Position numbers and translations under genes: made by a program. Positions 1 through 18,326 of a stretch of 64,000 nucleotides of DNA are shown here, piece by piece; the first letter of the stretch is position 1; each line of letters opens with the position of its first letter. The stretch is from contig CAVQFR010000014.1 in NCBI GenBank assembly GCA_963711845.1, forward strand, positions 73,644-137,643. The letters are read 5' to 3'. The notes under the pieces are model-generated. The model was not told the DNA's origin. It made no database searches and saw only the letters and a list, made by a program, of their open reading frames with translations. This DNA is from an uncultured delta proteobacterium (lineage in GTDB: Bacteria; Desulfobacterota; BSN033; UBA1163).

Positions 1-185
1 TCCAGGAAGTTTTCATTCGCCATCGTCTTCAGGCCCGATTGGATCAGGTACGAAGCCCTGTTGAGAGCTTCTCGGGAAATATCGACTAAGGAAACCTGAA
101 ACCCTCCTTGGGCGAAAATCTGTGCCATGCCGTAACCCATGACGCCAGCCCCAACAACAACAACCTTTTGGTTTTTCTCCTTCAT
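1..185 (-). CDS. 3-hydroxyacyl-CoA dehydrogenase, N-terminal part (gene continues past window start)
   Basis: Manual minus-strand translation from ATG at 185-183 gives MKEKNQKVVVVGAGVMGYGMAQIFAQGGFQVSLVDI..., a GxGxxG Rossmann N-terminus typical of 3-hydroxybutyryl/acyl-CoA dehydrogenases; absent from ORF track because truncated by the window edge. Confidence 0.7.
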   Translation of the reverse strand, partial: MKEKNQKVVVVGAGVMGYGMAQIFAQGGFQVSLVDISREALNRASYLIQSGLKTMANENFL

Positions 186-207
186 CGGTCTATCCCCTAG
201 TCATCAT

Positions 208-549
208 TTAGTCTAGTTTGACGATGATGACTAACATTGTCGCCGGCTCCGTTCCAACCGTCTCGATACTTCGCTCTTCTCCAGGGGGAATATAGAGCAC
301 ATCGCCGGGGCCAAGCAGGTATTCGTCTTTGTTCTTGCCTCTTACCAACAAAGCGCCCGATATGCCGCAATAGACCCGTTCCGTGGGAGAAGCGTACATT
401 TCAGCTCCGCCCCCGGGGAGGAAATGGGAAACGCTTACATGAAGTCGCCGGCTACCATCTTCTTGACTAACTTTTGTAATCCCGCTCTGGCCAAAGTGCT
501 GTTTAGCCTGTTTCGGCGGTTGGCCTTGATCTTTTTTAATCAGCTTCAT
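208..549 (-). CDS. cupin-domain protein
   Basis: 113-aa ORF with small beta-barrel cupin-like sequence (GDVLYIPPGEE...HVSVSHFLPGGG); same strand and tight spacing with flanking catabolic genes. Confidence 0.55.
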   Translation of the reverse strand: MKLIKKDQGQPPKQAKQHFGQSGITKVSQEDGSRRLHVSVSHFLPGGGAEMYASPTERVYCGISGALLVRGKNKDEYLLGPGDVLYIPPGEERSIETVGTEPATMLVIIVKLD

Positions 550-590
550 TTCGTCACCTCACTTCAAATTCTTTCTCTTCGCTGTAGGTT

Positions 591-1361
591 CTAACCAATC
601 GCTGTCATCCCGCCGTCGAGGTAGATGATCTGGCCCGTGATAAAATCTGAAGCCGGGCAAGCGAGAAAAACAAAAGTGCCCGCGACCTCTTTCGGGTCGG
701 CAACCCGTTTCAGTGGCACGTTACCGAGGTATCTTTGAATCTGCTCTGGAGAGCGTGTCGCGAAAACTTCTGGTTTGGCAACCAAAGAAGGAGCGACAGC
801 ATTCACTTTAATATTATACTGAGCCCATTCCGAAGCCAGTGCCCGCGTCATCATGTCCAGGGCTCCTTTCGAAGCGCAGTAGCCCAGGTTTCCTCCCCAG
901 AGAGTGGCTCGAGAGCCCCTGACGGAAGACAGGTTGATGATTTTTCCCTTCTTGTTTTTTATCATGATTTTGCCAAACTCCCGGCAACAGAACATGACGC
1001 CTTTTACGTTGAGATCAAACAGAGAATCCCAGACATCCGCGGGGAACTCGTCGGCCGGCCTCTTTGTGGCCGACCCGTAGGCATTGACCAGTATATCTAC
1101 GGTGCCAAAGGCCGAGACAACTTCCCTCGCCAGATTAATGATACTCTCTTCATTGTTGGCATCCCCCTGAAGACAAGCGACCTTCACTCCAGTGTCTGCT
1201 TCGATTTTTTTGGCCGCATCCTGTAATTTCTGCATACCTCGACTGGCGATCACGACCTTCGCGCCCTGCTCTGCCATTCCAGCAGCTATCGCGCCGCCGA
1301 TAGCTCCTCCCCCGCCGATAATCACGGCTACTTTGCCGTCCAATCTGAACAGATCACCCAT
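591..1361 (-). CDS. short-chain dehydrogenase/reductase (SDR) family oxidoreductase
   Basis: 256-aa ORF; N-terminal glycine-rich NAD(P)-binding motif (VAVIIGGGGAIGGAIA), NAYG and catalytic Y-x3-K (YCASK). Confidence 0.85.
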   Translation of the reverse strand: MGDLFRLDGKVAVIIGGGGAIGGAIAAGMAEQGAKVVIASRGMQKLQDAAKKIEADTGVKVACLQGDANNEESIINLAREVVSAFGTVDILVNAYGSATKRPADEFPADVWDSLFDLNVKGVMFCCREFGKIMIKNKKGKIINLSSVRGSRATLWGGNLGYCASKGALDMMTRALASEWAQYNIKVNAVAPSLVAKPEVFATRSPEQIQRYLGNVPLKRVADPKEVAGTFVFLACPASDFITGQIIYLDGGMTAIG

Positions 1362-1399
1362 GATTTCTTTCTCCTCCTTTCGCGTATAAGCCTCTGGGT

Positions 1400-2278
1400 T
1401 CAGGCTTTGAGAAGCTTGAGCCCCAGTATCCTGCGTGTCTCATCCGGTGTTGCCGGTTGCTTGCCTAACTCCTGTGCGAATCTGACTGCCCGGGCCACTA
1501 ACTGAGCATTACTCTCAGCAGGTTCTCCCTTTCTGTAAAAAAGGCTGTCTTCAAATCCTACCCGGATAGCCCCACCTAAAATCATCCCGATTGTTGTAAT
1601 GGGAAATTGAGCCTTGCCGGTTGCCAACACACTCCACAGGGTATCCTGGGGCTCCGGAAGATCATCGATAAACCACGTCAGGTGCTTCGGGGTAGCGTCT
1701 ATCCCCCCATGGTACTTATGGCCAAGCACAAATTCCACATAGTAAGGCTTGTCCAAGAACCCTTTTTCAATCAAGTTTCTCACCTCACGAAGGTTTCCGG
1801 GGTTAAACACCTCCATGGATGGTTTAACCCCCGCCTCCTTCATTTTCCCGGCCCAATCTTCAAGAGTGTCACCATATCGAATTGTATACGTGCCTTTATA
1901 GGGGCCGGAGTTTCGTACCATGGTGCCCATGTCCAGTGATGCCATCTCGGGTTTCGGGTCAGCCTGCAAGCAGAGAATCCTATCCTCGACGGGAACCTGG
2001 GGACCAGTGCCTGTCGTGTCTTGAATGATGATATCGCAACCCAGTTCTCTTATCTTGCTGTGTATCTCACTATAGACCTTCGGATCCCCGGTCGGAATTC
2101 CATTCTTATCACGGGCATGGATATGCAGGATGGATGCCCCTTCTTTCCAGCACTCACAGGCTGCTCTTGCGATCTCATCCGGTTGTTCCGGAACATTTGT
2201 ATTCCGTTCTTTCGTGCGAGCCACTCCACCAGTCGTGGCCACCGTAATGATGACTTTATCTTCAGGTAATATCGCCAT
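1400..2278 (-). CDS. beta-keto acid cleavage enzyme (BKACE / 3-keto-5-aminohexanoate cleavage enzyme family, DUF849)
   Basis: ORF 1400..2335; sequence KVIITVATTGG...ILHIHARD...VEFVLG resembles BKACE TIM-barrel family; likely true start at internal Met (MAILPEDKVIIT) at 2278. Confidence 0.75.
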   Translation of the reverse strand: MAILPEDKVIITVATTGGVARTKERNTNVPEQPDEIARAACECWKEGASILHIHARDKNGIPTGDPKVYSEIHSKIRELGCDIIIQDTTGTGPQVPVEDRILCLQADPKPEMASLDMGTMVRNSGPYKGTYTIRYGDTLEDWAGKMKEAGVKPSMEVFNPGNLREVRNLIEKGFLDKPYYVEFVLGHKYHGGIDATPKHLTWFIDDLPEPQDTLWSVLATGKAQFPITTIGMILGGAIRVGFEDSLFYRKGEPAESNAQLVARAVRFAQELGKQPATPDETRRILGLKLLKA

Positions 2279-2386
2279 TTGACTATTCCTCCAGGATCGC
2301 CACGAGCCGAACCATAGACCCGTCCCCTCCCTCAACCCGGAGGGAAAAAGCCGCGATTGTGTATCGAATTCCAGTCACCTCTAACA

Positions 2387-3094
2387 TCAGGGTCTTGTCA
2401 GTTCAATCTTGAATTTGTAAAGGTCAGGGCGGCAATAGCTAATACTCATGAAGACAGGAGTCCGGTTCCTGGCATAGTATTGTCGCTCAATGACGTAAAC
2501 GGGGGCCCTTTTCTCAATGGAAAGATATTTCGAAATTCTTGCATCTGCTAATGCAACAGTCATGCTTTGGAAGGCATGGTGAACCTTGGTTTTAGATTTC
2601 TCTTCGACAAGAAGAATAATTTCGGTAGTTTCTTTAATTTCACTCCGAGAAATCATTTTCCCTAAATGAGGGGGTAAATAAAGGACCGAGTAGCGGGTCG
2701 CACCTTTTGAAGATGAGAAGACTACCTCCATCTGGAAAACCATCTGCCTCGTCCCTGTTTGGAGGAATTTTGCCACAAAGGGAGGGGGGATTGCTTCCTT
2801 ATATTCCAAAACTTTTATTCTTCCTTCCCGAGCCGACGCGATGAGGTTTTCAATTGTTCCCTTATATCTCAAATGTCTCAGTCCCACTTCCTCGCTTACA
2901 AACGTCCCCTTTCCGCGAATTCGGTATATCAACCCCTCATTGATAAGCTCCAATAGTGCCTGACGAACTGTACCCCGACTGACATGATATTCTTGAGATA
3001 GGTCGATTTCTGATGGGACAAGATCCCCTGCCTTGAGTTCATTAGAGAGAATCCTAGCCCTGAGGATGCTTTTTATTTGGAAGTAAAAAGGCAT
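2387..3094 (-). CDS. GntR/HutC-family transcriptional regulator (wHTH plus UTRA effector domain)
   Basis: N-terminal GntR HTH signature (LPSEIDLSQEYHVSRGTVRQALLELINEGLIYRIRGKGTFV) followed by UTRA-like C-terminal domain; heads the co-directional catabolic cluster; start probably internal Met at 3094. Confidence 0.8.
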   Translation of the reverse strand: MPFYFQIKSILRARILSNELKAGDLVPSEIDLSQEYHVSRGTVRQALLELINEGLIYRIRGKGTFVSEEVGLRHLRYKGTIENLIASAREGRIKVLEYKEAIPPPFVAKFLQTGTRQMVFQMEVVFSSSKGATRYSVLYLPPHLGKMISRSEIKETTEIILLVEEKSKTKVHHAFQSMTVALADARISKYLSIEKRAPVYVIERQYYARNRTPVFMSISYCRPDLYKFKIELTRP

Positions 3095-3239
3095 TGGGCC
3101 GTCTTCAAGTATCACGTTTCTCTCTCCTGAAAATGACTTTTGGCTCTACAAAGGTGTGCCCATTTGAACGTCACGAACCCCTGAAAATTGAGACGTGACT
3201 GATTGACTAGATGTCCATACATTACTACACCTGAAAAAA

Positions 3240-3625
3240 ATGTCAAGAAAAAAATTTATTGGAGTGCTTAAATCTTCTTCGGCTTATCGGTATGTGTTTC
3301 ATCGAAACCAGGAACCCATAAAAGATTTTCGTTGGGCATGGGATATCCGCTGCCGGCAAGCGGGCTTGAAAGGGAGCCTATTCCATGACTTCAGAAGAAC
3401 TACGGTAAGGAATATGGTCGGAGCAGGAGTCCCAAAGGAGTGGCAATGAACATCTCGGACCATAACACGCGGAGCGTGTCCGATCGCTGTAACATCGTTA
3501 ATGATCGGGACCTAATAGAAGCAGCTTTGAAGAAACAGGCTTACCATGAGAAGCAGAACGCATTAGTTGGAAGTGATCAGAAGCGGGGAGAGGTTATCCC
3601 TTTCAAACAGGCACAAAATGAGTAG
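3240..3625 (+). pseudogene. tyrosine recombinase/integrase C-terminal remnant (truncated and frameshifted)
   Basis: Two short ORFs in different frames (3240..3449, 3440..3625) together spell an integrase C-terminus: ...LFHDFRRTTVRNMVGAGVPKEW / ...ISDHNTRSVSDRCNIV...; no N-terminal/catalytic core upstream; lies immediately 3' of tRNA-Leu. Confidence 0.55.
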
Positions 3626-3726
3626 TCAAATAAATTTTAACCTTCGTGAGCACAATTTGGCACGGTCACCACAAAATTGAACAAAAAAAGGATTAGCTTC
3701 GGTCTTGCTAACCCCTTGGATATACA

Positions 3727-3815
3727 TGGTGCCTAGGGCCGGACTTGAACCGGCACGGTGGGGGGCCACCGAGGGATTTTAAGTCCCTTGCGTCTACCAA
3801 TTCCGCCACCCAGGC
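3727..3815 (-). tRNA. tRNA-Leu (anticodon UAA), long variable arm, CCA encoded
   Basis: Reverse complement reads GCCTGGGTGGCGGAATTGGTAGACGCAAGGGACTTAAAATCCCTCGG...GGTTCAAGTCCGGCCCTAGGCACCA; 7-bp acceptor stem pairs, anticodon loop CTTAAAA, T-loop GGTTCAAGTCC; closely resembles E. coli leuZ. Confidence 0.9.
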
Positions 3816-3903
3816 AGTCCTATGGGTTAATCGTCACTTCTTGGGATTCTTACTAAGGAATCCATCATTGCCCAGACCATTATCTTCAGAAAATCTCCCC
3901 TAA

Positions 3904-3949
3904 CCCCTCTTTGCCTGTCTAAAGACAGGAAAAGGATACCAAAGAGGGG
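3904..3949. other. nested palindrome (outer CCCCTCTTTG/CAAAGAGGGG enclosing CCTGTCTAAAGACAGG)
   Basis: Read directly; lies between the LVIVD gene 3' end and the tRNA-Leu 5' side. Confidence 0.4.
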
Positions 3950-4100
3950 GATTCCTCTGTCTAACCAATTATGGACTGACTAATAACCAAATTCTCGTTT
4001 AATAGAATTTATAATTCTTAGAAGATTATGTCAATAAAAAATGAAGCTTTATTGAGCAGGTTGATCATTGAAGAGTAAAGGGGACAAGAACGGAAAACTC

Positions 4101-5334
4101 TTACTTCTTATGCCTAAGAATGAAGAGCCCGTGATTCTTGTCCGTGATGTAAATATATCCCCGATTATCGACGATCACGTCTTCTGTCTGGGTGGCCAAT
4201 TCTTTGGGAAGCAGTCCCCTCTTCTTCTTGGGTGAAGCCGGGATGAAATAGGCAATAGGCCTGGGCACGCCCGGGGCAGCTGATGTCGTAAAGCCATAGG
4301 CCTCCACTCTCGTAACAGATATGGATGATGTTATCGACATCCGCAAGACAAGGTTGATGGTGGGGCATGTGGATGTTATGCGGCCCGAACTTTCCTCCGA
4401 GTTCCTGGAAATCTCGAACTCCTAATTCCTCCGGAGGAACCGGGATAGGGAAATTTGCAATTGGTTTGGGTTTCTCCTCATTTGTCATATCCACAACCAA
4501 TGCAAGGTTAAGCGGGTCCCGCTCTTCTTCGAGGATGGCCTCCGTTGTGGCGATCGCCAGTTTCCTCGACGGGATGGGCAAATAGGTGTGAGCTCCCACA
4601 ATGCTTCCAAAATCTCCGATGTCGATGCGGCCGAGTTGGCGAGGATGGGAAAGATCGGAGATGTCCAGGGTGATAAAACCGGCCCGACCATAGGGGAGAT
4701 AAGCTCTCTCTCCTATCACATACGGCGGACCATGGAGTTGATAGAAGCGATCCGCCTTTTCGCCTCCCTCTTCCCATTGTCCTTTAAACCACCACCGTGA
4801 AACCTCTTTGGGGTGGGTCGGATCGCTTATATCCACAGCAACAAAGATGTTTCCTTTATAACCCTTCATGTTGGCCGCAAGATACGCATATTTTCCACCT
4901 GAATAAAAGTTACGGTGGGTTCCAAAGCCTCCGGTTTCAAAAGAGCCCAGTCGCTTGGGATCCGTCGGATTCTTAACATCCCAGATCAGGATGCCTTCAC
5001 CGAAAGGCAGAGAGGGATCGTGTCCCCAGATATCGTTCCGACCCAGGATCCCATCCCCGATTCTCTCCAGAGCGGTGACCATCTTCCCCTGGGCCACCTG
5101 AACTTGTAATGTCCATGTATTGGCCGGACCGGGGATGAATTTGAGAAGCTCGGGTCGAGAGGGACGGGTGATATCCATGATGGTCCAGCCGCGGTGCCAG
5201 AAATGGCCGATATACAAGTACCAGCGGCCCTCCACTTCCTGAATCGCCATCTTGAATCCAGGCCTTTCGTCGAGGTCATGGTATGCGACCGTCTCCATGT
5301 TCTTGCTGATAAAACCCGGACTCTCACTCATCAC
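4101..5334 (-). CDS. LVIVD-repeat beta-propeller protein (apparent frameshift near 3' end)
   Basis: 389-aa ORF with about six repeats of hydrophobic-D-hydrophobic-SDP-x-x-P pattern (ILIWDVKNPTDP, FVAVDISDPTHP, FITLDISDLSHP, LALVVDMTNEEKP, LWLYDIS); final repeat continues in another frame in ORF 4101..4346 (...DVIVDNRGYIYITDKNHGLFIL). Confidence 0.6.
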
Positions 5335-5525
5335 TCACACTCCCACTAAGACTAATTCCCCCACTAGCAGGTTGTTGAAAAAGAGACTATTTCTCAGGCT
5401 GCTCAAAAATGCCCAGATGCAAGGCTCCCGAAATCCTGAGGAATGAGGCGTACTTGGAGGTACGCCGCAATGACGAAGGATGAGGGAAACGAAGCAGATG
5501 GGCGTTTTTCAGCAGCCTGCTAGAT

Positions 5526-6695
5526 TCAAGGGAGTCTCTGTCTAACTCCTCTGATGATATCGACCACATTATTCTGCATCTTTCCATCTTTGATATCTGC
5601 CACACAGATATAAAGGTCGGCGATCACTTGCCCTCGCTCGTCAAAGCGGATCGGTCCCCGCGGGCTGTTCAGGGAGACCTTGGAAATGGCCGCCAGGAAT
5701 TTGTCTTTATCGGAGAGATTCCCTTTAACGCTGGTAGCGGCTGCCAGGATGACCTTGGCGGCATCATAAGCATTCACACTGGGCAACGACGGGTCGGTAT
5801 TAAATTTGGCTCGAAAAGCGGCCACGAACTTCTTATTTTCGGGAAGATCGATGGTCGGTGTGTACGGAGTGACCACCGTATTCCCTTTGATAAAATCCTT
5901 GATCGAATCCATGATCGTTTCTTCATTGATGCCGATCCAGCCGGTCAGGGGTATCTTATCCTTGAGACCGAAGTCCACGTATTGGGAATCAAATTTCACT
6001 GCATCCGCGCCCGCATACCAGGCATATACCGCATCGATATCCCTTCTCATCTGCGAAAGGTAAGGCCCGAAATCAGGCGTATTCATCGGCGTGTAGACCT
6101 CCTGAAGAATCTGCCCTCCCATCTGCTCAAAGCCTTTTTTGAAAGCAGCCACCGAATCACGGCCTGCCGGAAAATCAATGCCAAACCCAACCATTTTACG
6201 ATATCCTTTTTTCTTATAAAGCCACTCCGCAAAGGGGAAATTCGCCTGGCTCGGTATCACCTGGAGGCGAAACGTATACTTGTTGGCCAGGGGCGGAAGC
6301 GTCAGATTCTCCGGCATGGCCAGGGGTACAATCCAGGGAACCTTCTGTTGGACAACGTAGTCCCTCATGGCCACGGCAGCAGCAGCGTTGACAGGCCCCA
6401 TCAGGACATCGATATGGTCCTTCTCCACCAGTTTCTGGGTCTTGGTCAGTGCAATGGCCGGTGACATGACCTCGTCTTCTATGATAACCTTGATGGTCTT
6501 GCCGGCGACACGGTTGGACACTTCATCAAGAGCCAGGGTAAATCCTCTGATGATGTGCGTGCCCTGGAATGTCATTGGACCTGTCTGGGACGCCAGAAGA
6601 CCGATCGTGATCGATTCTTCCGCGCTGAAGGCTGCCAGAGGGAATACGAAGAGGACGATAAAAAGGATGAGTAGCGTGTGCCGGGTCTTTTTCAT
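5526..6695 (-). CDS. ABC transporter substrate-binding protein, branched-chain amino acid (LivK/Leu-Ile-Val-binding) family
   Basis: 389-aa ORF with N-terminal signal peptide (MKKTRHTLLILFIVLFVFPLAAFSA) and type-I periplasmic binding protein fold sequence; divergent from permease/ATPase genes. Confidence 0.85.
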   Translation of the reverse strand: MKKTRHTLLILFIVLFVFPLAAFSAEESITIGLLASQTGPMTFQGTHIIRGFTLALDEVSNRVAGKTIKVIIEDEVMSPAIALTKTQKLVEKDHIDVLMGPVNAAAAVAMRDYVVQQKVPWIVPLAMPENLTLPPLANKYTFRLQVIPSQANFPFAEWLYKKKGYRKMVGFGIDFPAGRDSVAAFKKGFEQMGGQILQEVYTPMNTPDFGPYLSQMRRDIDAVYAWYAGADAVKFDSQYVDFGLKDKIPLTGWIGINEETIMDSIKDFIKGNTVVTPYTPTIDLPENKKFVAAFRAKFNTDPSLPSVNAYDAAKVILAAATSVKGNLSDKDKFLAAISKVSLNSPRGPIRFDERGQVIADLYICVADIKDGKMQNNVVDIIRGVRQRLP

Positions 6696-6846
6696 ACTGA
6701 CTCCTTTCTCTATTTTGTGATCATCTGAATTCGGTATACCCCTTTCCTCTCCGTGGTGAAATGAGAAGAAGGATTTACAATGAACTAAAATTATATTAAA
6801 CCCATGTCTGTGTCAAGATGTCCGCACCAGATAATCCATAATCGTC

Positions 6847-6867
6847 ATCCTGAACTTGTTTCAGGAT
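6847..6867. promoter_or_regulatory. candidate operator palindrome ATCCTGAA-N5-TTCAGGAT
   Basis: Perfect 8-5-8 inverted repeat in the divergent promoter region between the binding-protein gene and permease gene. Confidence 0.4.
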
Positions 6868-6890
6868 CTATGGGTTATCGAAAATGAGAG

Positions 6891-6911
6891 ATGCTGAAAA
6901 AATTTCAGCAT
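6891..6911. promoter_or_regulatory. candidate operator palindrome ATGCTGAAA-AAA-TTTCAGCAT
   Basis: Perfect 9-3-9 inverted repeat, shares CTGAA/TTCAG half-sites with the palindrome at 6847..6867. Confidence 0.4.
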
Positions 6912-7030
6912 GACAGGGATATCGTTAAGGTTTTGAAATTCGATTACGGATTATGTCCGGATGAAATCTTCTTGATTTTAACTCTCCCTCGATATACCAT
7001 GCATCTAATTCTGGAACAACCCCTTAAGTC

Positions 7031-8926
7031 ATGATCTCCTACTGGCTCACGCATATCGTTAACGGACTCTCCTTCGGCATGCTCCTTTTTGTCCTGGCCG
7101 CAGGGCTATCGCTCATTTTCGGGTTATGCCGGATCGTCAACCTGTCCCATGGTTCTTTCTACCTGTTGGGAGGGTATATTGGATTCTCAACGGTTCGCTT
7201 GACCGGAAATTTTCCCCTTGCCGTCCTCCTCGCCATGCTCTCCATGGCCGTTCTGGGAATACTGACGGAACGCATTCTCCTTCGCCGGTTCCGGGTCAAG
7301 CCCCTGGCCCAGGTGTTGTTGACCTTCGGTCTTATCTTCGTTTTTCAGGACGCGGCCATATGGATATGGGGAGGAACGCCTGTCCTGTTGAAGAAACTTC
7401 CTATCCTCACCGGCGCGACGAACCTCTTCGGTTTTTACTATCCGACCTACAGACTTCTCATCCTGTTGATCGGGTTGGTCATCCTTTTCTTTCTCTGGTG
7501 GCTCCTGATACGCACCCGGCTGGGCATCTTCATCCGGGCGGCGGTTGACGACGGAGAAATGGCGAATGGGGTCGGGATTCGCATGAATCTTCTCATGACC
7601 ATGGCCTTCGGTTTTGGCACCCTGTTGACAGGACTGGCCGGGAGTATCGGGGCGCCCTTTCTGGGGGTCTATCCCGGTCTGGATATCGAGGTGCTGCTCT
7701 ATGCGATGGCCGTGGTCATCGTCGGCGGTCTGGGCAGCTTGAAGGGCTCTTTCCTGGGCGCCCTCATGGTTGGCTTAGTCGACTCGATGGCCAAGGCCCT
7801 CTGGCCGGAGACGGGCATGTTTTCGATGTTTGCCCTGATGGCCATCGTATTGATTCTGAAACCTACCGGTCTTTTCGGCCTTCCCATTGCACCCATCAGC
7901 CAGGCATCGGTGTCGGAGGAGATCTTTCTTGAAGCGATTCCTTCAGGCGCCGGACATCCGTTGGGGTGGAGACGGAGGGCGTTGATCCATCCCTCATTCA
8001 TCTGGATCATGACGGCCTGTCTGGTGGCTGCAGGCCTGCTCTGTCCGATCATTCTTTCTACATACTACGTCAGACTGTTTACCCTGGCCTTGATTTGGGC
8101 GATCTTTGCCATGAGCCTCGATCTCATTCTCGGCCTGGGAGGAATCATCTCTCTCGGCCATGCGGTATTTTTCGGAATCTCTGCCTACACGATCGGATTG
8201 GCAGCTCGGTTCTTAACGCCCAATCTTTTCCTCCAGATCGGCCTAGCTCTGTTCGTCTCTGCCTTCGCTGCCCTGGTGTTGGGATGGCTTCTGCTCAGGA
8301 GTCGCGGGGTCTATTTCATGATGTTGACCATCGCCTTTTCCCAGGTCTTTCGGGCGATTGCCCATTCCTGGCGTTCCGTGACAGGCGGAGGGGATGGCCT
8401 CTCCGGTTTTGTACGGCCCATGTGGATGACTTCTGTCGAAACCTTCTACTACTTCGCCCTCTTCGTATTCATCGCCGTCTTTCTCTTCCTCCGATTTTTC
8501 GTCAAATCGCGGGTCGGAATCTCCCTGATCGGGATCCGCGAAAGTGAAAAACGCATGACGAGCCTTGGCTATCACGTAGACCACATCAAGCTTCTCTCCT
8601 TCGTCGTGTCGGGCGGCCTCGGCGGGATCGCCGGCCTCCTGAACGTCTATTTCAACGGGTACGTCAGCCCTGATTATTTTTCTGTGGATACATCCGCACA
8701 GGCCATCATCATGATCATTCTTGGCGGTGCAGGAACATTGATCGGACCCATCCTCGGATCGTTCTTCGTCATCTTCATGCAGAACATCTTGAGCGCCGTG
8801 ATGGAGCGATGGACCCTGGTCCTCGGCGTTCTCTTCATCCTGGTGGTGATCGGCGCCCCGGCAGGAATGGTGGGACTTTGGAGAAAACAATGGCACAAAT
8901 TCAGCCGGAGACAATCCCCGTCCTGA
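7031..8926 (+). CDS. branched-chain amino acid ABC transporter permease, fused LivH-LivM
   Basis: 631-aa polytopic membrane ORF; N-half LivH-like (…VNLSHGSFYLLGGYIGF…), C-half LivM-like (…LDLILGLGGIISLGHAVFFGISAYT…). Confidence 0.9.
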   Translation: MISYWLTHIVNGLSFGMLLFVLAAGLSLIFGLCRIVNLSHGSFYLLGGYIGFSTVRLTGNFPLAVLLAMLSMAVLGILTERILLRRFRVKPLAQVLLTFGLIFVFQDAAIWIWGGTPVLLKKLPILTGATNLFGFYYPTYRLLILLIGLVILFFLWWLLIRTRLGIFIRAAVDDGEMANGVGIRMNLLMTMAFGFGTLLTGLAGSIGAPFLGVYPGLDIEVLLYAMAVVIVGGLGSLKGSFLGALMVGLVDSMAKALWPETGMFSMFALMAIVLILKPTGLFGLPIAPISQASVSEEIFLEAIPSGAGHPLGWRRRALIHPSFIWIMTACLVAAGLLCPIILSTYYVRLFTLALIWAIFAMSLDLILGLGGIISLGHAVFFGISAYTIGLAARFLTPNLFLQIGLALFVSAFAALVLGWLLLRSRGVYFMMLTIAFSQVFRAIAHSWRSVTGGGDGLSGFVRPMWMTSVETFYYFALFVFIAVFLFLRFFVKSRVGISLIGIRESEKRMTSLGYHVDHIKLLSFVVSGGLGGIAGLLNVYFNGYVSPDYFSVDTSAQAIIMIILGGAGTLIGPILGSFFVIFMQNILSAVMERWTLVLGVLFILVVIGAPAGMVGLWRKQWHKFSRRQSPS

Positions 8927-9666
8927 AAATAACGGACCTCTTCAAAAGCTACGGCGGGCTGGAAGTTCTGGCGGACATCCGTTTAGAGATCCATCGCAGC
9001 GAATTACACGCCTTGATCGGGTCGAACGGCGCCGGAAAAACGACGCTCTTCGACATCATCTGCGGGTTTATCAAGCCCTCCCGGGGGAGTATTCAATTTC
9101 TGGGGAAGGAGATCACCTCCCTCCCTCCCTTCAGGCACGCCCATCTGGGAATAGGCCGGACGTTCCAGATCACAACGCTTTTCCGTTCCATCAGCGTCCT
9201 CGATAATCTGCGGCTCACCCTCGAGGCCCTCCCCGCCACCCGCGTCCCCTTCTTGAAGTCAAACAGATTCTCCGAGAAGAACCTGGATCCCGTGAAGGGC
9301 CTGCTCAACACATGGGGGTTGTGGGAAACGAGGAACATCCCCGTAGCCGCGCTGCCGTATGGCGTCCAGAGGCAATTGGAAATCATCATGGCCCTTCTCC
9401 AAAAGCCAAGACTGCTGATGCTCGACGAGCCCATGGCAGGACTTGAGGCGGGAAGCCGAGAATCGATGATGCGCCTGATCAAGGAATCCGGTAAGGAAAC
9501 GACCATCTTTTTTATCGAGCACGATATGAACGTGGCATTGCAACTGGCAGATCGCGTGACCGTTTTGCACCAGGGGAAAATCGTTGCTCAAGGGAGTCCT
9601 GTGCAGGTTCAAAACAACAGAGAGGTTCAACGACTCTATTTCGGGTATGAAGACAAAACGGCATAG
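8890..9666 (+). CDS. branched-chain amino acid ABC transporter ATP-binding protein (LivG-like)
   Basis: Walker A GSNGAGKTT, ABC signature region, Walker B LLMLDEPMAGL; start taken at ATG 8890 (MAQIQPETIPVLKITDLFKSYGG), overlapping permease 3' end. Confidence 0.9.
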   Translation: MAQIQPETIPVLKITDLFKSYGGLEVLADIRLEIHRSELHALIGSNGAGKTTLFDIICGFIKPSRGSIQFLGKEITSLPPFRHAHLGIGRTFQITTLFRSISVLDNLRLTLEALPATRVPFLKSNRFSEKNLDPVKGLLNTWGLWETRNIPVAALPYGVQRQLEIIMALLQKPRLLMLDEPMAGLEAGSRESMMRLIKESGKETTIFFIEHDMNVALQLADRVTVLHQGKIVAQGSPVQVQNNREVQRLYFGYEDKTA

Positions 9667-9768
9667 AGCGTAGAGCATAGAACATAGCGCATGGCGTAAC
9701 TGAGGAAGGCAAGAATGGGTCGAGCCTGCCCGCTGCAGGCAAGGTGCCCTCCAGGCATAGGGTATTAG

Positions 9769-10518
9769 ATGGAAAGTAGACCAATCCTAATAGTGGAAGA
9801 GATTCATACCTATTACGGCCAGAGCCATATTCTCCAGGGGGTCACCCTCTCCCTGGAGCAGGGGGCCATCGTTGCTGTGCTCGGCCGTAACGGCGTGGGG
9901 AAGACGACGCTCATAAGATCTCTCATCGGATTCAACATCCCCAGAGAAGGGAAGATTTATTTTAAAGGTGAGGAGATTACCCGGATGGAGCCCTACGGGA
10001 GGGTCGATGTTGGGTTGGCCCTGGTTCCTCAAGGACGCCGGATCTTTGGCTCATTGACTGTGGAAGAGAACTTGCTTTCCTCGGCAAAGAGGAGAGAAAA
10101 AAGAAAGATCTGGGATCAAAACGGAATTTTTGACCTCTTCCCTCAGCTCAAAGAGAGAAAAAAAGTCAGGGCTTCCCATCTGAGCGGAGGAGAACAGCAG
10201 ATGTTGGCCATTGGCCGGGCCCTTGTCAGCAATCCCGACCTTCTCCTCCTGGATGAACCCACGGAAGGACTTTCTCCTTCTGTGATCCGGGAATTGATCA
10301 AGATTCTTTCTCAACTGGCAAAAGAGGGACAATCCGTCCTCCTTGTCGAACAGAATCTGCAATTTGCCCTGAGTCTTGCAAGTTACCTGTTCATCCTGAG
10401 CAGAGGAAAGATGGTTTATGAGTCAACGCCCTCGGAGCTCTCCCAAAAACCTGAGGTCCAGCTCGCCTATCTCGGGGTTGGCCAGTCCGAGACGAAAGAG
10501 ATGAAACCATCCGAATAA
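9769..10518 (+). CDS. branched-chain amino acid ABC transporter ATP-binding protein (LivF-like)
   Basis: Walker A GRNGVGKTT, signature LSGGEQQML, Walker B LLLLDEPTEGL. Confidence 0.9.
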   Translation: MESRPILIVEEIHTYYGQSHILQGVTLSLEQGAIVAVLGRNGVGKTTLIRSLIGFNIPREGKIYFKGEEITRMEPYGRVDVGLALVPQGRRIFGSLTVEENLLSSAKRREKRKIWDQNGIFDLFPQLKERKKVRASHLSGGEQQMLAIGRALVSNPDLLLLDEPTEGLSPSVIRELIKILSQLAKEGQSVLLVEQNLQFALSLASYLFILSRGKMVYESTPSELSQKPEVQLAYLGVGQSETKEMKPSE

Positions 10519-10702
10519 ATTCTGAGAAAAAGTCCTTAAGGCGAGAAGACGTTGTTTCACTCACCATAGCCATCCCTTCAATCGAAAATTGGCGGAATTT
10601 GCCTCTGCCACTCCCTTGTTTCAAAAAGAAACTTGTGTTAGAGACAAATGAATACAATCTAGTGTAGCATATCTAACACCTCTTTACACCGATCCCGAAG
10701 CC

Positions 10703-10767
10703 GTCATTCCCGCGAAAGCGGGAATCCAGATTAGATACACTGGATTCCGGGTCAAGCCCGGAATGAC
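10703..10767. repeat. nested-palindrome element with GTCATTCC...GGAATGAC termini (family member 1)
   Basis: gtcattcccgcgaaagcgggaatcc...ctggattccgggtcaagcccggaatgac: two adjacent hairpins with similar stems plus terminal inverted repeat; second copy with same architecture at 40246..40359. Confidence 0.5.
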
Positions 10768-10921
10768 AAATACAGGAGAGGAACTTTTAATTCACTACAC
10801 TGGCAAAGCCATATTTCGTTCAAATCTCCCTCTCACCTTCCAGCGGGGGAGGTAGATCGTGGAGAATGTTAGAAAAACCTTTTAGACCTAGATACATCAA
10901 AATCCAAAGAAGGAGAATGCG

Positions 10922-12580
10922 ATGCGATCCGATGCGATGAAAAAAGGACTCGAAAGGGCGCCCCATCGTTCCCTCTTCAAGGCCCTGGGGCTTACGGATG
11001 AAGAGATTGAACGACCCATGATTGGAATTGCAAACTCAGCCAATGAAGTCATTCCAGGCCACCTCCATCTGCACCAGATCTCTGACGCCGTGAAGGCAGG
11101 AATCCGAATGGCAGGCGGGACACCTCTCGAGTTCTTTACGATCGGCGTCTGTGATGGGATCGTCATGGGCCATGAAGGAATGAAATACTCCCTCAGCTCA
11201 AGAGAATTGATTGCAGATTCCGTTGAATCCATGGCCATGGCCTACCCTTTCGATGGTCTCGTTCTCATTCCCAATTGCGACAAGATTGTGCCCGGAATGA
11301 TGATGGCGGCGGCCCGGCTCAATATTCCCAGCATTGTCATCAGCGGCGGTCCCATGCTGACGGGCGATTTCCAGGGAAAGGAGTACGACGTTATTTCCGT
11401 ATTTGAATGCGTCGGAAGAGTGAAGGTTGGGAAAATGACGCTCGACGACCTCAAAGAGGTTGAAGGCTGCGCCTGCCCGGGTGTGGGATCCTGTGCAGGG
11501 ATGTTTACAGCTAACTCGATGAACTGCCTTTCGGAAGTCCTTGGCCTTGCCCTTCCCTATAATGGTACGATCCCTGCCGTCTTCGCTGAACGGATCCGTC
11601 TGGCAAAGAAGAGCGGCATGCAGATCATGGACCTCGTCAAGCGGGATTTGAAACCCTCCAGGATCCTGACGAAGAAGGCCTTTGAGAATGCCATCACTGT
11701 TGACATGGCCTTCGGAGGATCGACGAACACTTCCCTTCACCTCCCAGCCATTGCGAAGGAAGCGGGAATCGAACTATCCCTCGCTGCCTTTAATGAGATC
11801 AGCGAAAAGACCCCCCATCTCTGCAACATGTCTCCGGGGGGTCCTCATCATTTACAGGAACTTCACCAGGCAGGAGGGATCCCTGCGCTAATGCTCGAAT
11901 TGAGCTGTGGAAATCTGATTCACCGGGATGCATTGACCGTTACGGGAAAAAAAGTTGGGGAGAACCTCAAGGGAAAGAAGACCCATAACCCGGAGGTCAT
12001 CCGCTCCCTAAAAAGACCCTACCATCAAACCGGAGGGCTTGCCGTCCTTTTCGGGAATTTGGCGCCCCAGGGAGCAGTCGTAAAACGCTCTGCGGTTGAT
12101 GACGCCATGCTGAAGCACCGGGGACCGGCCAGGGTCTTTGATACCGAAGAAGAAGCCCTGAAGATGGTCCTGAATGGAAAGATCTTGAAGGGGGATGTCG
12201 TGGTGATCCGGTATGAAGGACCGAAGGGCGGACCGGGCATGAGGGAGATGCTGGCCCCGACCTCTGCGATTGCAGGTGTAGGAAGAGATCGCGATGTGGC
12301 CCTCATCACGGACGGCCGGTTCTCAGGAGGAAGCCGCGGAGCAGCCATCGGCCATGTCTCTCCCGAAGCTGCCGAGGGAGGCCCCATTGCTGCGGTTCAG
12401 AACGGGGATCTGATTGAGATCGATATTCCGAATAAGAAACTGAGTCTCCTCATCTCTGAAGAGGAATTGAAGAAGAGATTGTCCCAGTGGAAGCCACCTC
12501 AGAAAAAACTCAAAGGATATCTCAAAAGGTATGCAAAGCTGGTACAATCGGCCAACACCGGAGCCACCTTCGAAGACTAA
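10922..12580 (+). CDS. ilvD: dihydroxy-acid dehydratase
   Basis: 552-aa ORF with IlvD/EDD family hallmarks ([27 protein letters not shown], Fe-S ligand region [16 protein letters not shown]); SD AAGGAGA 6 nt upstream of ATG. Confidence 0.95.
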
Positions 12581-12627
12581 TTCACGTTTCACTTAAGGGT
12601 CAATGACACGAATCACCGACACTGTCA

Positions 12628-14077
12628 CTATCTTTTAAGTACGGGCACGGAATATGGCCCTTCTCGAATGAAGGCCACAGTCGGTTCAATCCCTTTTTCT
12701 CGATAACGGTAAACAGCAAATTGGACAGCCTTCTGTACCATCTCCTGGGCCTTCTCAACGGCAGGCTTTATCCTTTTTCCCTTCATAAAATCGAGGCCAC
12801 AGACTCCCGGAAGGATGCAGTAATTTTCTCTCTCAATTTCCAGGGAACAATAAATCAGCCCGTCCTCTCCGATTTTTCTCAGGACCTTCCCCCAGACCTC
12901 GGGTTCCCATTGATCCTTTGTAAACTTCCAGCCGGAAGTTTTCAGTAAATCGAGATAGCCGTCCGGTCCCTGCAATTTTAGCAGGTGAATCAGACTTCTG
13001 TATTCCGGAGACCCGATGGGGTTGATGAAATCCCGGTTATTCGCTGCGATGATGATGACACCCCCTTCTTTCACCGCCGGGATAGCGCCCACCCCTGCCT
13101 TGGCCGTCTGGTAATGATCTCTTCCCACATATCCGCTGTGAGTCAGTACGATATCGAACTCCTCATCAAGAGGGATCTCCGCATAGCCCTTGATCATTTC
13201 AAAGGCCTTCATATTTCCCTCCACCATATCCCCTGTAAATACTCTCACGAGGCGCAAATCTTTATCCAGGTTGACGTTGATAACAAAATCAACTCCGACC
13301 GTCTGGGCAACTTCCAAAGCCTCCTCGTGACATGGATTCCCTTCGAGGACGAGGTTCGTTGCCCGGGGGTCTTCAAGATAAGGCAGGCCCGTGAAATCTT
13401 TGAATGGTCTTGACGTCCACCAATCCCGGACAAACGGATTTTCTCCCACCGGAGATCCCTGTGAAAAAATGACTCTCGACGAGTCCTGTCGCAATCTTCA
13501 GGTCCGCAAAATAGAAGTCCCGATTGACATAGACATGGGTCCCTCTTTTTGTCTTTCCGATACTCTCCAAAAGATCGTTATTCTCACAATCGTGGTCCAG
13601 GATCGTGTACTGTTTAACCACTTCCTCCCCGTACATCTCCACCTTCTCATCCGGGGTGCTTGCTCGATGCATTCCTGTCGCTACAATAATCTTGATATTT
13701 TCTTTCTTAATCCCTGAAGACTCCAGGCGTCCAAGCAGCGGGGGGAGGATGCCGCCTTCTCCTTTATAAGGAACGGGCCTTGTAATATCGGAAACAGCAA
13801 TGGCCACAGACATCTGTTCGGGAGGTTTCCCTTTTTTCCGGATGATCTCTTCCAAAGGGGGACTGCTGATGGGGGCTAGAAAAGCCTGCTCAAAGGCCTT
13901 TTGGGGATCCGGTAATACGGCAACCTCCTTCATGGTGAGTTCAACACTGTTTGGAGGCACCCAAACCTCTATCGCGTTTCTTCCAAACTCTACTGAGATT
14001 TTCTTCCAATCCTTCATATCAATTTTTTTAATAGCCTTTTTAAGGTCGCTTCGCATCGTGGTTCTCCTGACGATCAT
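12628..14077 (-). CDS. LarA-family (nickel-dependent lactate racemase-like, DUF2088) protein, interrupted by apparent -1 frameshift
   Basis: Two overlapping ORFs (13373..14077 N-part with VAIAVSDITRP, IVATGMHR, FFTGISGGRKSVCPG; 12628..13494 C-part with LEGNPCHEE) together match one LarA-like protein; frame change near 13380-13400 at a G/C run. Confidence 0.7.
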
Positions 14078-14438
14078 TTGGGGTTATGAAGTCTTGAGCT
14101 CGGCGTTCGCTCCCTCCGCGGTCGCCCTATTCTGAAACTTCTTTCTCCGAACCCATTAAGTTTAGTATAACCTGCGCCACCTCACATTACTATGTAACTT
14201 CAAATCCTGTCAAGATCAGCACCCGATCGAGCTTTTCGCCAGCTTGCGGGTGATTCTGCTTGATAATATAGAGCGCGATAGATCCACTTTAATCCAGGAG
14301 GATCGCTCGAAAAGCCTGAAGGTCGTACTTATGCCCCTAGGTATTCGGAGTGGAGATGAGGGTTTACATCGAAAGGTTGAATGGATTAATCCCTTGGAGC
14401 AAATCAGAGGCGAAAGGAAACAATTGGAGTATCGTAAT

Positions 14439-14702
14439 CTATGAAGAAGCCATCGGCTTAGGATACAAACGCAGATAAATCCCAAATACGTCATCTGCCA
14501 TTTTTTCGGTTGTCTCTTTAATCTCATGTAAACTTGATATGAAAGAGTGCAGCGATTCGTCAAGTTTCGTTATGTTCTCACAGTTCCTTTTTGAATTTTC
14601 TAATAGTTTTTTCTCCCGCTCACGAGATTCTTCAATAAGATCTCTTAACTTTTCTCTCTCTTCTTCAGTCCACTCTGACACAAGCTCATCGACTGTCTTC
14701 AT
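14439..14702 (-). CDS. hypothetical small charged coiled-coil protein
   Basis: 87-aa ORF rich in E/K/R; weak SD upstream; no recognisable family. Confidence 0.3.
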   Translation of the reverse strand: MKTVDELVSEWTEEEREKLRDLIEESREREKKLLENSKRNCENITKLDESLHSFISSLHEIKETTEKMADDVFGIYLRLYPKPMASS

Positions 14703-15030
14703 GACCTATCCTTTCTTGCGGGAGATAGGAAATATAAAAGCAAAATATATACCGGCTTCATGGGTCATCCAGGAAACCATAAAATAACTCACCTCTTCGA
14801 GGAGTTAGACAATCATAAGAAAACCCGGCGAAAACTGACCCTTCAAAAAAAGAGAAACGCTTTACTCTTTTTAGAAAAATCGTTTCCCTTTTTGGGAAGA
14901 TTGAATGGATTCGATCTGTCGAAAAAATTCGGAGGGAGGTTATTGAATCAGCAAGAGAGATCGATTTCACTTCTTATGCTGCCACTATCTCGAGCGGGCT
15001 CTCCATCTCAAAGGCGAACTGAATGCAGGA

Positions 15031-15079
15031 CCCCTCACCCTTCCCCTCTCCCCAGCGGGAGAGGGTGGGAGTGAGGGGG
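15031..15079. repeat. GC-rich palindromic repeat, copy 1 (CCCCTCACCCTTCCCCTCTCCCC / GGGAGAGGGTGGGAGTGAGGGGG)
   Basis: Read directly; immediately 3' of the peroxidase gene; related copies at 28669, 36175, 46536, 56160. Confidence 0.6.
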
Positions 15080-15083
15080 TCAT

Positions 15084-16484
15084 CTAAAGTTGGCGCATAA
15101 AAGCCACAAGATCCCTCTTCTCCTGCTCGCTCAGTTTGAGCTCAAGAATCAAATTGAAAAACTCCACCGTATCTTCCAACGTCAGGAGCCTTCCATCATG
15201 CAAGTAAGGAGGGGAATCTTTAATCCCTCGCAAAGGAAAGGTCTTGATGGGGCCATCTGCAGAGGCATATCTCCCATTAATCATCCGCGGTTTAAAGAAA
15301 CGTTCACCCTTCAAGTTGTGCATCAGATTATCGGTATAGTAGGGAGCTGGATGACAGCTTCCGCAAGCAGCTTTGCCGAAGAAGAGTACCTGCCCCCGCA
15401 TTTCCGGTTGGGTTGCCTTTTTCGGATCAAGCTTTCCGTCGATCCCAAGCTTAGGAGCCGGCGGAAAGTCCAGCAACGCCTGGAACTCCGCCATAAAATG
15501 GACCTGGCTCCCCCGCTCCAGGATGTTGACCCCTTTTTTCGTAGCAATCACCGGGTCGCCGTCAAAATATGCAGCCCTTTGTTCAAATTCGGTGAAGTCT
15601 TCGACCGACTTCAAAGCTCGCTGCGACCCAAACAGCCGCTGGATGTTCACACCCCGTAAACTAGGGGTATCCAGACGATGCCGGAATTCCTGGGGCCGGA
15701 TATCCCCAACAAGGTGTGTCGAGGCATTGGTATGTCCGTTTGCATGGCAGTCAAAACAGACGACCCCACGGCTTGGACGCTCGGACCGCCGGTCCTCGGT
15801 TTGGTTGAACTGCTGTTGCGGGAACGGGGTGACCAGTAGCCTCAGGCCTTCAATCTGCTTGGGGTTTAGAACTCCATTGAACAGCGCATAGTAGTTATCA
15901 AGAGTGACCAGTTTCCCCTGCGAAACATCTCCTAGGTCAGATCTCGTGGTCAGATAGATCGGTGCTGGGAACTCAGGAATCAAGTGATCCGGTAAGTCAT
16001 AATCCAGGTCAAAGCGCGTGAGGTCCCGACCTTCTTGCTTCTTGATCTCATCAATATGGAACTTGGGAAAGAGCATGCCCCCTTCAGGATGATTAGGATG
16101 CGGGAGCGGGAAAAAACCCGCCGGGAATACGCCCTTCTCGCGAATCTCCTCCGGACTCATTCCGGCCAATCTCTCCCAAGTCATCCCCCCTGGAAGTTTC
16201 GCACGAACGCCCTCCTGAACAGCCTTGCCGCGAGACATCGTCACCCCTGCGGCCGGACGGTTACTCAGGTCATAGCGCTCACTAAGCAAATCCATCTGAC
16301 GCTTCATCACCCCTGGCTTTGCAGCTTTCATCCGGGTCATGATCGCTTCAAAACTCTCTTTGATCACCACGGGAGAGTAACTCGACTCTCCTCTTGAAGG
16401 AGATTGGGCAAAAGTAGAAATCGAAACAATAATCAATGAGAGAGTCACACTTGCCAATCCAATGTATTTTATCGCCTTTGACAT
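15084..16484 (-). CDS. di-heme cytochrome c peroxidase family protein with long N-terminal extension
   Basis: 466-aa ORF, signal peptide, two CxxCH heme motifs (CFDCH, CGSCH) and CCP-like C-terminal motif SPPYLHDGRLLTLEDTVEFF; roughly 240 aa precede the first heme site. Confidence 0.75.
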   Translation of the reverse strand: MSKAIKYIGLASVTLSLIIVSISTFAQSPSRGESSYSPVVIKESFEAIMTRMKAAKPGVMKRQMDLLSERYDLSNRPAAGVTMSRGKAVQEGVRAKLPGGMTWERLAGMSPEEIREKGVFPAGFFPLPHPNHPEGGMLFPKFHIDEIKKQEGRDLTRFDLDYDLPDHLIPEFPAPIYLTTRSDLGDVSQGKLVTLDNYYALFNGVLNPKQIEGLRLLVTPFPQQQFNQTEDRRSERPSRGVVCFDCHANGHTNASTHLVGDIRPQEFRHRLDTPSLRGVNIQRLFGSQRALKSVEDFTEFEQRAAYFDGDPVIATKKGVNILERGSQVHFMAEFQALLDFPPAPKLGIDGKLDPKKATQPEMRGQVLFFGKAACGSCHPAPYYTDNLMHNLKGERFFKPRMINGRYASADGPIKTFPLRGIKDSPPYLHDGRLLTLEDTVEFFNLILELKLSEQEKRDLVAFMRQL

Positions 16485-16923
16485 TTTTCTTAACCTCCCT
16501 TTTATGGAATTTTTCAGGAACTGAGATTCACCTTCTTCTTCTCATGATCCCACTGCCAGCCATCTGATCCTATGAAAATACCTGCACACACCAAATAGAT
16601 TAGTATCTACGGCATTCCCGGGTGAATAGGGCAAACACTGTATTTTTCTTGAAGAAGGACAGTATTTTGAGACTAATGGGAATAAAACGATTTTGTGGAA
16701 TATCCGAGGGGATCCAATTTTCAAGAAACATTCCTCGCCCTTGACGGCGAACGATCGTACCGGGTGATGATTACCCCGAGCATCATCTTGTTTGATTTTC
16801 TAAATGATTTTTTCTCGACGTCGTTTTTCCTTGGGTTTAAGAATTCCCCCTCTTTGCTTCCATCTCTGTTTTTCCTTCATCTCCATCTCTCGATTCATCA
16901 CACCCGCCCTTTCAGGAGAATTT

Positions 16924-17136
16924 TCATCTTGAGGATTTTCGAGGTTTCATCTTGGAAACGATTCCATAAGTGCTTTTATAGATATCTATCCATTGATCCC
17001 TGAATTTTTCATAATTTAATGTTTCATTTTTTTCTGACTTAAGCAGCTCAAGAACAAGGTAACAAGAAGCAAGATTTGAAGAAATAACAACACTTCTCAG
17101 TTCATTGAGTTCCGGTGACAAGGGTTTTAAATCCAT
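16924..17136 (-). CDS. hypothetical small protein
   Basis: 70-aa ORF with canonical SD AAGGAGG 6 nt upstream of ATG; located in AT-rich islet. Confidence 0.4.
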   Translation of the reverse strand: MDLKPLSPELNELRSVVISSNLASCYLVLELLKSEKNETLNYEKFRDQWIDIYKSTYGIVSKMKPRKSSR

Positions 17137-17367
17137 ACTGAACCTCCTTTACTTATTAGATTATTTTTTTCTTTCCCTTCATCCCTTGATCCACTATTCT
17201 CCCCTTTTTCGAAAAACTCCTCCTTCGTGAATATCCCTTACTCACCAACTAACCCAGCATGGGCTTCCGGGCGGACGACCAGAAGCATGGGAAGTTCTTC
17301 AAAGGAAACGGCTTGGGGGTGTTAGGAGGCATTCCCACGGCGAGCCTCCACAGAATCGATGTGAAAA

Positions 17368-17700: not shown

Positions 17701-17726
17701 CCCCTTTTATTCTCCTAGGCCTTCCT

Positions 17727-17845
17727 GTGGAGCCCCACGGGCAAAGCCCGTGGCACCTGACTAACGCCCGAGAGGGGCGACATCCCGGCCAAAAGTTGGC
17801 GCATTCATCCACGGCCAAAGGCCGTGGCTTTCTGCTGCCGGGGTA
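17727..17845. repeat. dispersed ~120-bp hairpin-rich repeat, copy A
   Basis: gtggagccccacgggcaaagcccgtgg...ggcgcattcatccacggccaaaggccgtgg...ccggggta; about 85-90% identical by eye to 51967..52086. Confidence 0.65.
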
Positions 17846-18249: not shown

Positions 18250-18251
18250 CT

Positions 18252-18326
<75 letters not shown>

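Follow-up and report, generated by a model that had tools for sequence, protein, structure and literature searches.

A degraded tyrosine integrase stub at tRNA-Leu(UAA) in an uncultured lineage, probably the relic of an ordinary integrative element

The closest described counterparts of the locus reported here are genomic islands and prophages integrated at tRNA genes. Integration sites in tRNA genes, including those with an anticodon-centred attP, were reportedly classified by Williams in 2002. Degenerate, integrase-defective islands and cis-mobilisable elements (CIMEs), formed by accretion at one att site, are known from ICESt1/ICESt3 of Streptococcus thermophilus. Among islands mapped in the Islander database, the anticodon-centred att class accounts for about half; as a rule, islands restore the tRNA, a displaced piece of which stays behind, and the anticodon-centred attP is common (PMC4383910). 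The present locus likewise has a tyrosine integrase, or what is left of one, beside a regenerated tRNA. Two features common in tRNA islands recur: an identity block that spans the tRNA from its anticodon loop to its 3' end, 57 nt long here and 45-57 nt in the intact integrase family, and tandem arrays at one tRNA, found here within the family. The locus differs from the islands in that only the 3' third of the integrase, a spacer and a tRNA half are left, with no displaced fragment and no definable island. Like the CIMEs of ICESt1/ICESt3, it presents a recombinase-less remnant beside an att site open to new elements; unlike them, it showed no second att site flanking the remnant, either in the window or in ~10.6 kb of relatives' sequence further left, and any mobilisation of it would be hypothetical.

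The window, i.e., the whole stretch of 64,000 nt that was analysed, comes from an uncultured delta proteobacterium. The features listed here lie close to its left end:

208..549, minus strand: cupin, catabolic cluster
591..1361, minus strand: SDR, catabolic cluster
1400..2335, minus strand: BKACE enzyme, catabolic cluster
2387..3115, minus strand: GntR/UTRA regulator, catabolic cluster
3240..3449, plus strand: ORF 1, overlapping ORF 2 and reading together with it as the C-terminal part of a tyrosine integrase
3258..3266, no strand: truncation junction, with conserved promoter/operator DNA of the GntR-led operon on the left and integrase-derived DNA on the right
3267..3431, plus strand: integrase remnant, first frame, within the ORF 3240..3449 (about residues 250-305 of full-length relatives)
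3431..3432, plus strand: site of a 1-nt deletion, GTC-CC in the window vs GTCTCC in contigs L001, L002 and L088
3432..3625, plus strand: integrase remnant, second frame, in the ORF 3440..3625, with TAG at 3623..3625
3440..3625, plus strand: ORF 2, ending in TAG 3623..3625
3626..3726, no strand: spacer of 101 nt, element-derived and P' arm-like, with repeats GCACAATTT-GGCACGGTCACC and a minus-strand hairpin followed by U7 at ~3683..3717
3727..3783, minus strand: 3' 57 nt of the tRNA, up to and including the anticodon loop; corresponds to the att identity block that the integrase family would predict
3727..3815, minus strand: tRNA-Leu(UAA), intact, 89 nt, the integration target (ARAGORN; Rfam RF00005, 57.4 bits)

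The homology of the two ORFs can be read off directly. ORF 1 (translation of 3240..3449 containing ...YVFHRNQEPIKDFRWAW...LFHDFRRTTVRNMVGAGVPKE) and, in the next frame, ORF 2 (translation of 3440..3625 running from VAMNISDHNTRSVSDRCNIVNDRDL to FKQAQNE and the stop) join into a 128-aa reading that is 88% identical (E 2.8e-67) to a metagenomic 128-aa 'integrase', P0001, and that also matched other integrase fragments. P0001 scores 31.2 bits against Pfam PF00589, above the cut-off of 27.1; the joined reading of the window stays below this cut-off (15.4 bits, E 0.016), as expected of a decayed fragment. Full-length relatives, with PF00589 at 82-85 bits and SAM-like N-terminal domains, match the window by tblastn at 3291..3622 (E ~1e-19 to 1e-24) with about residues 250-345 of ~365-380, and the same tblastn search found one integrase-like locus only in the window. 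What survives is the C-terminal third, ~120 codons at ~3267..3625 on the plus strand, of an enzyme of ~380 aa at full length. No integrase-like sequence was found in the window upstream of ~3267, so that the N-terminal core-binding (SAM-like) and arm-binding domains are absent; those carried by the relatives are PF13102, PF14659 and PF02899. The sequence belongs to PF00589 by descent, through P0001 and the full-length relatives. A full catalytic set has an Arg, a Lys, the His-x-x-Arg motif, a His/Trp and the nucleophilic Tyr, of which the window keeps just HxxR and the second His. The first-pass annotation had described a C-terminal tyrosine recombinase remnant split over two frames, and the ORF layout, the P0001 match and the tblastn matches bear this out. 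Its estimate of ~110 codons is corrected here to ~120 integrase-derived codons; its distance of about 100 bp to the tRNA 3' end agrees with the 101 nt counted from the stop TAG 3623..3625 to position 3727. The interval 3240..3625 is a pseudogene and no active PF00589 member.

Damage within the window copy is seen directly in the alignment with L001, L002 and L088. The T missing between 3431 and 3432 puts the reading out of frame, so that a stop appears at 3447..3449. Of the conserved motifs, His-x-x-Arg is retained as HDFRRT (His 3384..3386, Arg 3393..3395); the catalytic Tyr has become Cys (TGT at 3488..3490 vs TAT in the relatives), the GH motif at 3458..3460 reads DH (Gly to Asp, 3459), the MVRAG motif has Gly for Arg, and several further conserved positions are also changed. 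The region with the first catalytic Arg, the Lys and the DNA-binding domains lies outside the fragment, which never contained it. Lacking these parts, the stub is non-functional as a recombinase, whatever the status of the frameshift; the truncation and the substitutions are likewise independent of it. Over 3259..3525 the fragment is 91.8% identical to L001, vs 98.6% for the GntR gene and 99-100% for the spacer and tRNA half. With L003 as outgroup, the 25 differences between window and L001 in the fragment divide into 15 derived in the window, 4 derived in L001 and 6 undecided, and they are clustered at 3343..3514. By our own estimate from the counts, the ~4-5% synonymous-type divergence of neighbouring genes predicts ~16 differences per 367 nt where 25 were observed, and the differences are skewed to the window lineage.

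The truncation junction was examined with relatives of the neighbouring operon. Scanning metagenomes with the cluster's BKACE protein gave 10 contigs, six of which (L087, L089, L091, L093, L094 and L095; 84-94% nucleotide identity) follow the window up to 3254-3266 and past this point enter four different unrelated sequences, without integrase or tRNA. We read this common break point as the end of a selectively conserved promoter/operator region. The window's own junction, directly observed, is common to L001, L002 and L088 (96-97% nucleotide identity), and for this reason it is judged to be real and older than the split of the four sequences. An assembly chimaera at the junction was ruled out, as three independent contigs from different data sets carry it. 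Conserved intergenic DNA of the GntR side supplies the ATG at 3240 together with 6-9 initial codons (MSRKKF), which makes the apparent '128-aa ORF' a fortuitous fusion. In L001, L002 and L088 this ORF is uninterrupted over 128-129 codons with all conserved residues (HxxR, GH and Tyr) present, and non-synonymous and synonymous differences among the three stand at 5:1, 5:3 and 2:2.

Two of these contigs carry a different tail. In L002 (1039..1252) and L088 (reverse complement, 2745..2968), another integrase allele, with a P0004-like tail, takes over for the final ~33 codons of the stub and for the entire spacer; to the left of it, identity to the window is still 96-97%, and the tRNA is unchanged. 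Found in two independent contigs, the swapped tail would indicate recombination between integrase alleles at the tRNA-Leu site. The mosaic tail and the clustered differences at 3343..3514 together suggest that recombination with other integrase alleles occurs occasionally.

Intact members of the integrase family were collected in a genome scan with one genome per species, which gave 571 relatives, the best 80 of which were kept. Among these best 80 of 571, the highest identity was 73% and the nearest matches were from Thermodesulfobacteriota. Intact members occur in Thermodesulfobacteriota, Acidobacteriota, Nitrospirota and other MAGs and genomes (e.g., Desulfocarbo indianensis, L007) as well as in IMG/VR viral contigs, where 75 related integrase loci were found, and they share 47-73% amino-acid identity with the window over its fragment. 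They are 360-420 aa long, with PF00589, an N-terminal SAM-like domain and the full catalytic set, and differ in this from the ~120 codons of the window with no catalytic Tyr. The geometry is directly visible: in 50 of the 72 loci with enough downstream sequence (from the best 80 of 571), the integrase stop is followed within 250 nt by a convergent tRNA, at a median distance of 25 nt from stop to tRNA 3' end and a maximum of 129 nt, and the same arrangement holds in 35/45 loci with an ORF of at least 340 aa. The tRNA is tRNA-Leu in 36/50, tRNA-Leu(UAA) in 14 of these; L007, L052, L054, L069 and L078 are intact members in the same convergent arrangement with tRNA-Leu(UAA).

The att structure of the family is equally open to direct observation. 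In 11 loci the 3' portion of the tRNA is repeated directly over 45-57 nt at a distance of 3-9 kb upstream, perfectly so in 10/11. Invariably on the integrase side, the repeats extend from the tRNA 3' end as far as the anticodon loop, and at leucine and serine tRNAs they measure 50-57 nt. Elements with detectable ends span 3-9 kb; at tRNA-Leu(UAA) in L054, for example, a 56-nt repeat bounds an element of 3.3 kb. With convergent tRNAs at 50/72 loci and perfect repeats of 45-57 nt, the footprint of an integrative element at a tRNA gene, which the first-pass annotation had proposed for this site, is supported. Judged by eye from translations, the genes of the mapped elements are prim-pol-like, toxin-antitoxin-like, RES-like and STAND-type NTPase-like, and none of the family elements with mapped ends carries a catabolic operon. 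The flank of L103, the closest longer fragment, resembles a defence island (DUF4365, HTH_3/MqsA-like, Lon_C/RNase HII and TPR/CSD).

Two further family loci are described here for themselves. L064 (87..7176, tRNA-Leu(CAA)) holds a tandem array in which two perfect 55-56-nt repeats of the tRNA 3' portion bound segments of 2.6 kb and 4.4 kb, the tRNA-proximal one with an intact integrase and a gene that by eye reads like a RES-domain protein. In L003 (9029..10213), a more distant relative, a nearly full-length family integrase, residues 1-359 in at least 4 frame pieces, adjoins tRNA-Leu(UAA), and no distal att repeat was found within 10 kb. Its frame breaks may be sequencing errors, the contig names suggesting a long-read assembly.

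At the target itself, the 3' end of tRNA-Leu(UAA) lies at 3727, the gene is convergent with the integrase remnant, and it is 98.9% identical to the tRNA in L088. The integrase remnant stands 101 nt from an intact, regenerated tRNA in family-typical geometry, as in the Islander islands. The 57-nt block has the sequence TGGTGCCTAGGGCCGGACTTGAACCGGCACGGTGGGGGGCCACCGAGGGATTTTAAG. L001 shares 100% identity with the window across 3727..3783, a stretch that closes with the anticodon loop TTTTAAG; beyond it the two are unrelated. This exit exactly 57 nt into the tRNA looks like a displaced att half-site, such as would arise if the strain of L001 had received another element at its tRNA; the 129-nt tail that follows has no match among the loci collected here or in IMG/VR. 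An unrelated, AT-rich viral contig, L097, contains a tRNA-Leu(UAA) 3' half ending at the same place. The half-site in L001 and the mosaic integrase tail in L002 and L088 are consistent with the accretion picture known from CIMEs. Both L088 and L003 carry integrase remnants at their tRNA-Leu(UAA) sites, and among the contigs recovered there was no unoccupied tRNA-Leu(UAA) site of the same species.

In L002 and L088 the spacer and integrase tail are replaced together and the tRNA is constant; since the spacer changes with the integrase allele, it is part of the element and not of the host. Mean column identity of the spacer is 86% across the window, L001, L003 and L103, and the gene downstream of it in L103, cut by the contig end, differs in sequence from the tRNA 3' end of the window. 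The conserved repeats within the spacer (GGCACA...GGCACAGTCACC) may be integrase arm-binding sites. Folding placed a hairpin followed by U7 immediately 3' of the tRNA on the minus strand, which would serve as the terminator of the tRNA-Leu transcript; a simple terminator scan of 3000..4300 found none.

On the 5' side of the tRNA, the sequence varies in ways that are recorded here as separate observations. The LVIVD-repeat gene at 4101..5334 (minus strand) is split by a 1-nt insertion near 4297 relative to L086 (93% nucleotide identity); its homologues have 409-411 aa vs 389 aa, with an aberrant tail, for the longest ORF here, and the gene is either a pseudogene or affected by an assembly indel. 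L086, 93% identical, departs from the window at 4041, ~225 nt upstream of the tRNA, and past the break (L086 1215..2508) has an apparent, putative PIN-domain gene and an HTH_3 gene in place of the tRNA. The region between the LVIVD gene and the tRNA thus varies between strains, and a promoter-like site at 4034..4006 (minus strand) lies just inside the L086 break. Between this putative promoter and the tRNA, 3850..3985 is rich in inverted repeats (fold -46 kcal/mol, z = -2.3), shares a 31-nt match with L008 and may be a small inserted repeat. In L003 and L088, tRNA-Leu(UAA) directly adjoins an ilvD-like gene, which in the window stands 7.1 kb off at 10922..12580. The interval 3817..10906 holds the LVIVD gene and a branched-chain-type ABC transporter block. 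As one unit it shows synteny with L084, and an insertion or rearrangement 5' of the tRNA may have placed it here.

Further right, tRNA-Cys(GCA) and tRNA-Gly(GCC) at 18175..18326 (minus strand) share the orientation of tRNA-Leu(UAA), from which they are 14.4 kb away. The three tRNAs stand together in the same order in L069 (contiguous) and L059 (~1 kb apart), and glyW-cysT-leuZ of E. coli is a similar arrangement; an ancestral tRNA operon may have been split in the window. An element inserted at the tRNA-Cys 3' end (18175) was considered as an explanation for 3816..18174 and rejected, as no repeat supports it. Elsewhere, 17727..17845 and 51967..52086 form a 120-nt direct repeat (87% identity) composed of GC-rich hairpins. 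REP-like DNA of a similar hairpin-rich kind comes after the cluster in L089 and L091, and L086 shares a 65-nt match with window 38262..38326.

The catabolic cluster left of the junction extends, in relatives (L087-L096, L098-L101), ~10.6 kb beyond window position 1. The added genes encode a 3-hydroxyacyl-CoA dehydrogenase, a DUF35/ChsH2-like protein, a thiolase-like protein, the transporter TctBAC, a pyrogallol-transhydroxylase-like molybdenum enzyme with a ferredoxin (Fe-S) subunit and a creatininase-family protein. By gene content (window 1..3115 with L089 and L098), the cluster resembles anaerobic trihydroxybenzene/phloroglucinol catabolism, which is its putative function. Triacetate acetoacetate-lyase we take to be a BKACE-family enzyme. 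In the phloroglucinol pathway this lyase takes part, and the reductase is an SDR (PMC10470551). The first-pass annotation had called the cluster co-directional and suggested that it could be cargo of the element; it is co-directional with the tRNA, both being on the minus strand, but divergent from the plus-strand integrase fragment.

The suggestion that the cluster is cargo is not supported by the analysis. That account takes the stub, the tRNA half and an operon of at least 14 kb as one large island with a dead integrase at tRNA-Leu(UAA), which might move by homologous recombination or in trans through the related integrase of a tandem element. It has some evidence on its side: stub and cluster are 96-97% identical in the window, L001, L002 and L088, whereas the DNA beyond the tRNA differs in each contig that reaches it (in the window it is the LVIVD/ABC block, in L088 an ilvD-like gene with only 74% identity to its counterpart in the window, and in L001 sequence for which no match was found); all six integrase-less relatives break synteny at the window's own point, 3254-3266; and the family does form tandem arrays (L064). 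No direct repeat of attL/attR kind was found, however. The 57-nt tRNA half has no second copy in the 64-kb window (whole half and two sub-segments, up to 3 mismatches) and none in the left flank of the relatives (L087-L096, L098-L101; ~10.6 kb beyond the window), so that the displaced tRNA 3' fragment in direct orientation by which Islander islands are recognised is missing from the window and this flank, and when 3100..4170 was compared with the remaining window by short-word BLAST, chance 9-14-mers were all that came up. Composition gave no signal of foreign origin for 1..3115 either, with a GC content of 0.498 vs 0.49 for the window and ordinary tetranucleotide usage (z = 0.74); the lower value of 0.436 at 3116..4164 is ascribed to non-coding and decayed DNA. 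Moreover, in six relatives (84-94% nucleotide identity) the right edge of the cluster has neither integrase nor tRNA, the mapped family elements carry no catabolic operon, and the shared break point, as the end of a promoter/operator region, could be conserved by selection alone. We consider the cargo account unlikely, and the findings come close to what the first-pass annotation had itself named as the outcome that would speak against cargo, an isolated relic. A non-autonomous island composed of the stub, the 57-nt tRNA half and the trihydroxybenzene-type operon of at least 14 kb, spreading between genome backgrounds by homologous recombination through integrase/tRNA homology or by trans-acting integrases of tandem elements, would explain the 96-97% identical block beside unrelated DNA past the tRNA, and is distinctly improbable.

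The state of the stub allows two other readings. Its split into two frames could be an assembly error, leaving a continuous ORF as in L001, and a second 1-nt indel 0.9 kb away in the LVIVD gene, together with split genes in related ERZ250395xx assembly contigs, points that way. The deletion nevertheless lies outside any homopolymer run, and the 3.2 kb of adjacent genes to the left show 0 indels against independent Illumina-type contigs; on this ground the deletion at 3431/3432 is probably genuine. Many conserved residues are substituted in the same copy, which is decayed whatever the frameshift status, and we regard an assembly error as quite unlikely. The short ORF might instead encode a working protein in the relatives, and until recently here, for example one interfering with incoming integrases. 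The 128-129 codons with HxxR, GH and Tyr intact in L001, L002 and L088 amount to an ORF preservation somewhat above what simple neutral decay predicts, and of the 25 differences between window and L001 only 4 are derived in L001. Against this, the ORF owes its start and initial codons to chance, since they are intergenic DNA, the DNA-binding domains, first catalytic Arg and Lys are all missing, non-synonymous differences equal or exceed synonymous ones among the three contigs, the window copy is broken, and overall divergence is, by our own estimate, within about two-fold of the neutral expectation. A working protein is thus extremely improbable.

We favour an ordinary integrase relic: an element inserted at tRNA-Leu(UAA), and a later deletion fused its stub to the promoter of the GntR operon, a reading to which we assign a probability of roughly 0.72. 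An element with a lambda-type tyrosine integrase would have entered tRNA-Leu(UAA) by crossover in the anticodon loop. From this element would stem the 57 nt at the 3' side of today's tRNA, the 101-nt spacer including the terminator hairpin, and an integrase gene pointing to the tRNA. A deletion would then have removed the N-terminal two thirds of the integrase and the rest of the element, fusing integrase codon ~250 to the promoter region of the GntR-regulated operon at 3258-3266, and roughly neutral decay of the stub would have followed. We infer both this order of events and that the deletion, not the element, brought the operon beside the stub. On the favoured reading the stub is a fossil, and what still works is the tRNA, probably its terminator, and nothing else.

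Together, these results bear first on annotation, where 3240..3625 is to be recorded as a pseudogene rather than two small genes; beyond annotation, their significance is small. If the cluster does travel with the stub, this would mean horizontal spread of an anaerobic polyphenol-degradation operon and be of moderate ecological interest. For the integrase family, which is widespread and uncharacterised, the 57-nt anticodon-loop att block provides a clean example. For the uncultured lineage, which is probably related to Thermodesulfobacteriota, the locus marks tRNA-Leu(UAA) as an integration hot spot, and the site is still one in the population, as relatives carry a different tail allele and a displaced tRNA half-site.
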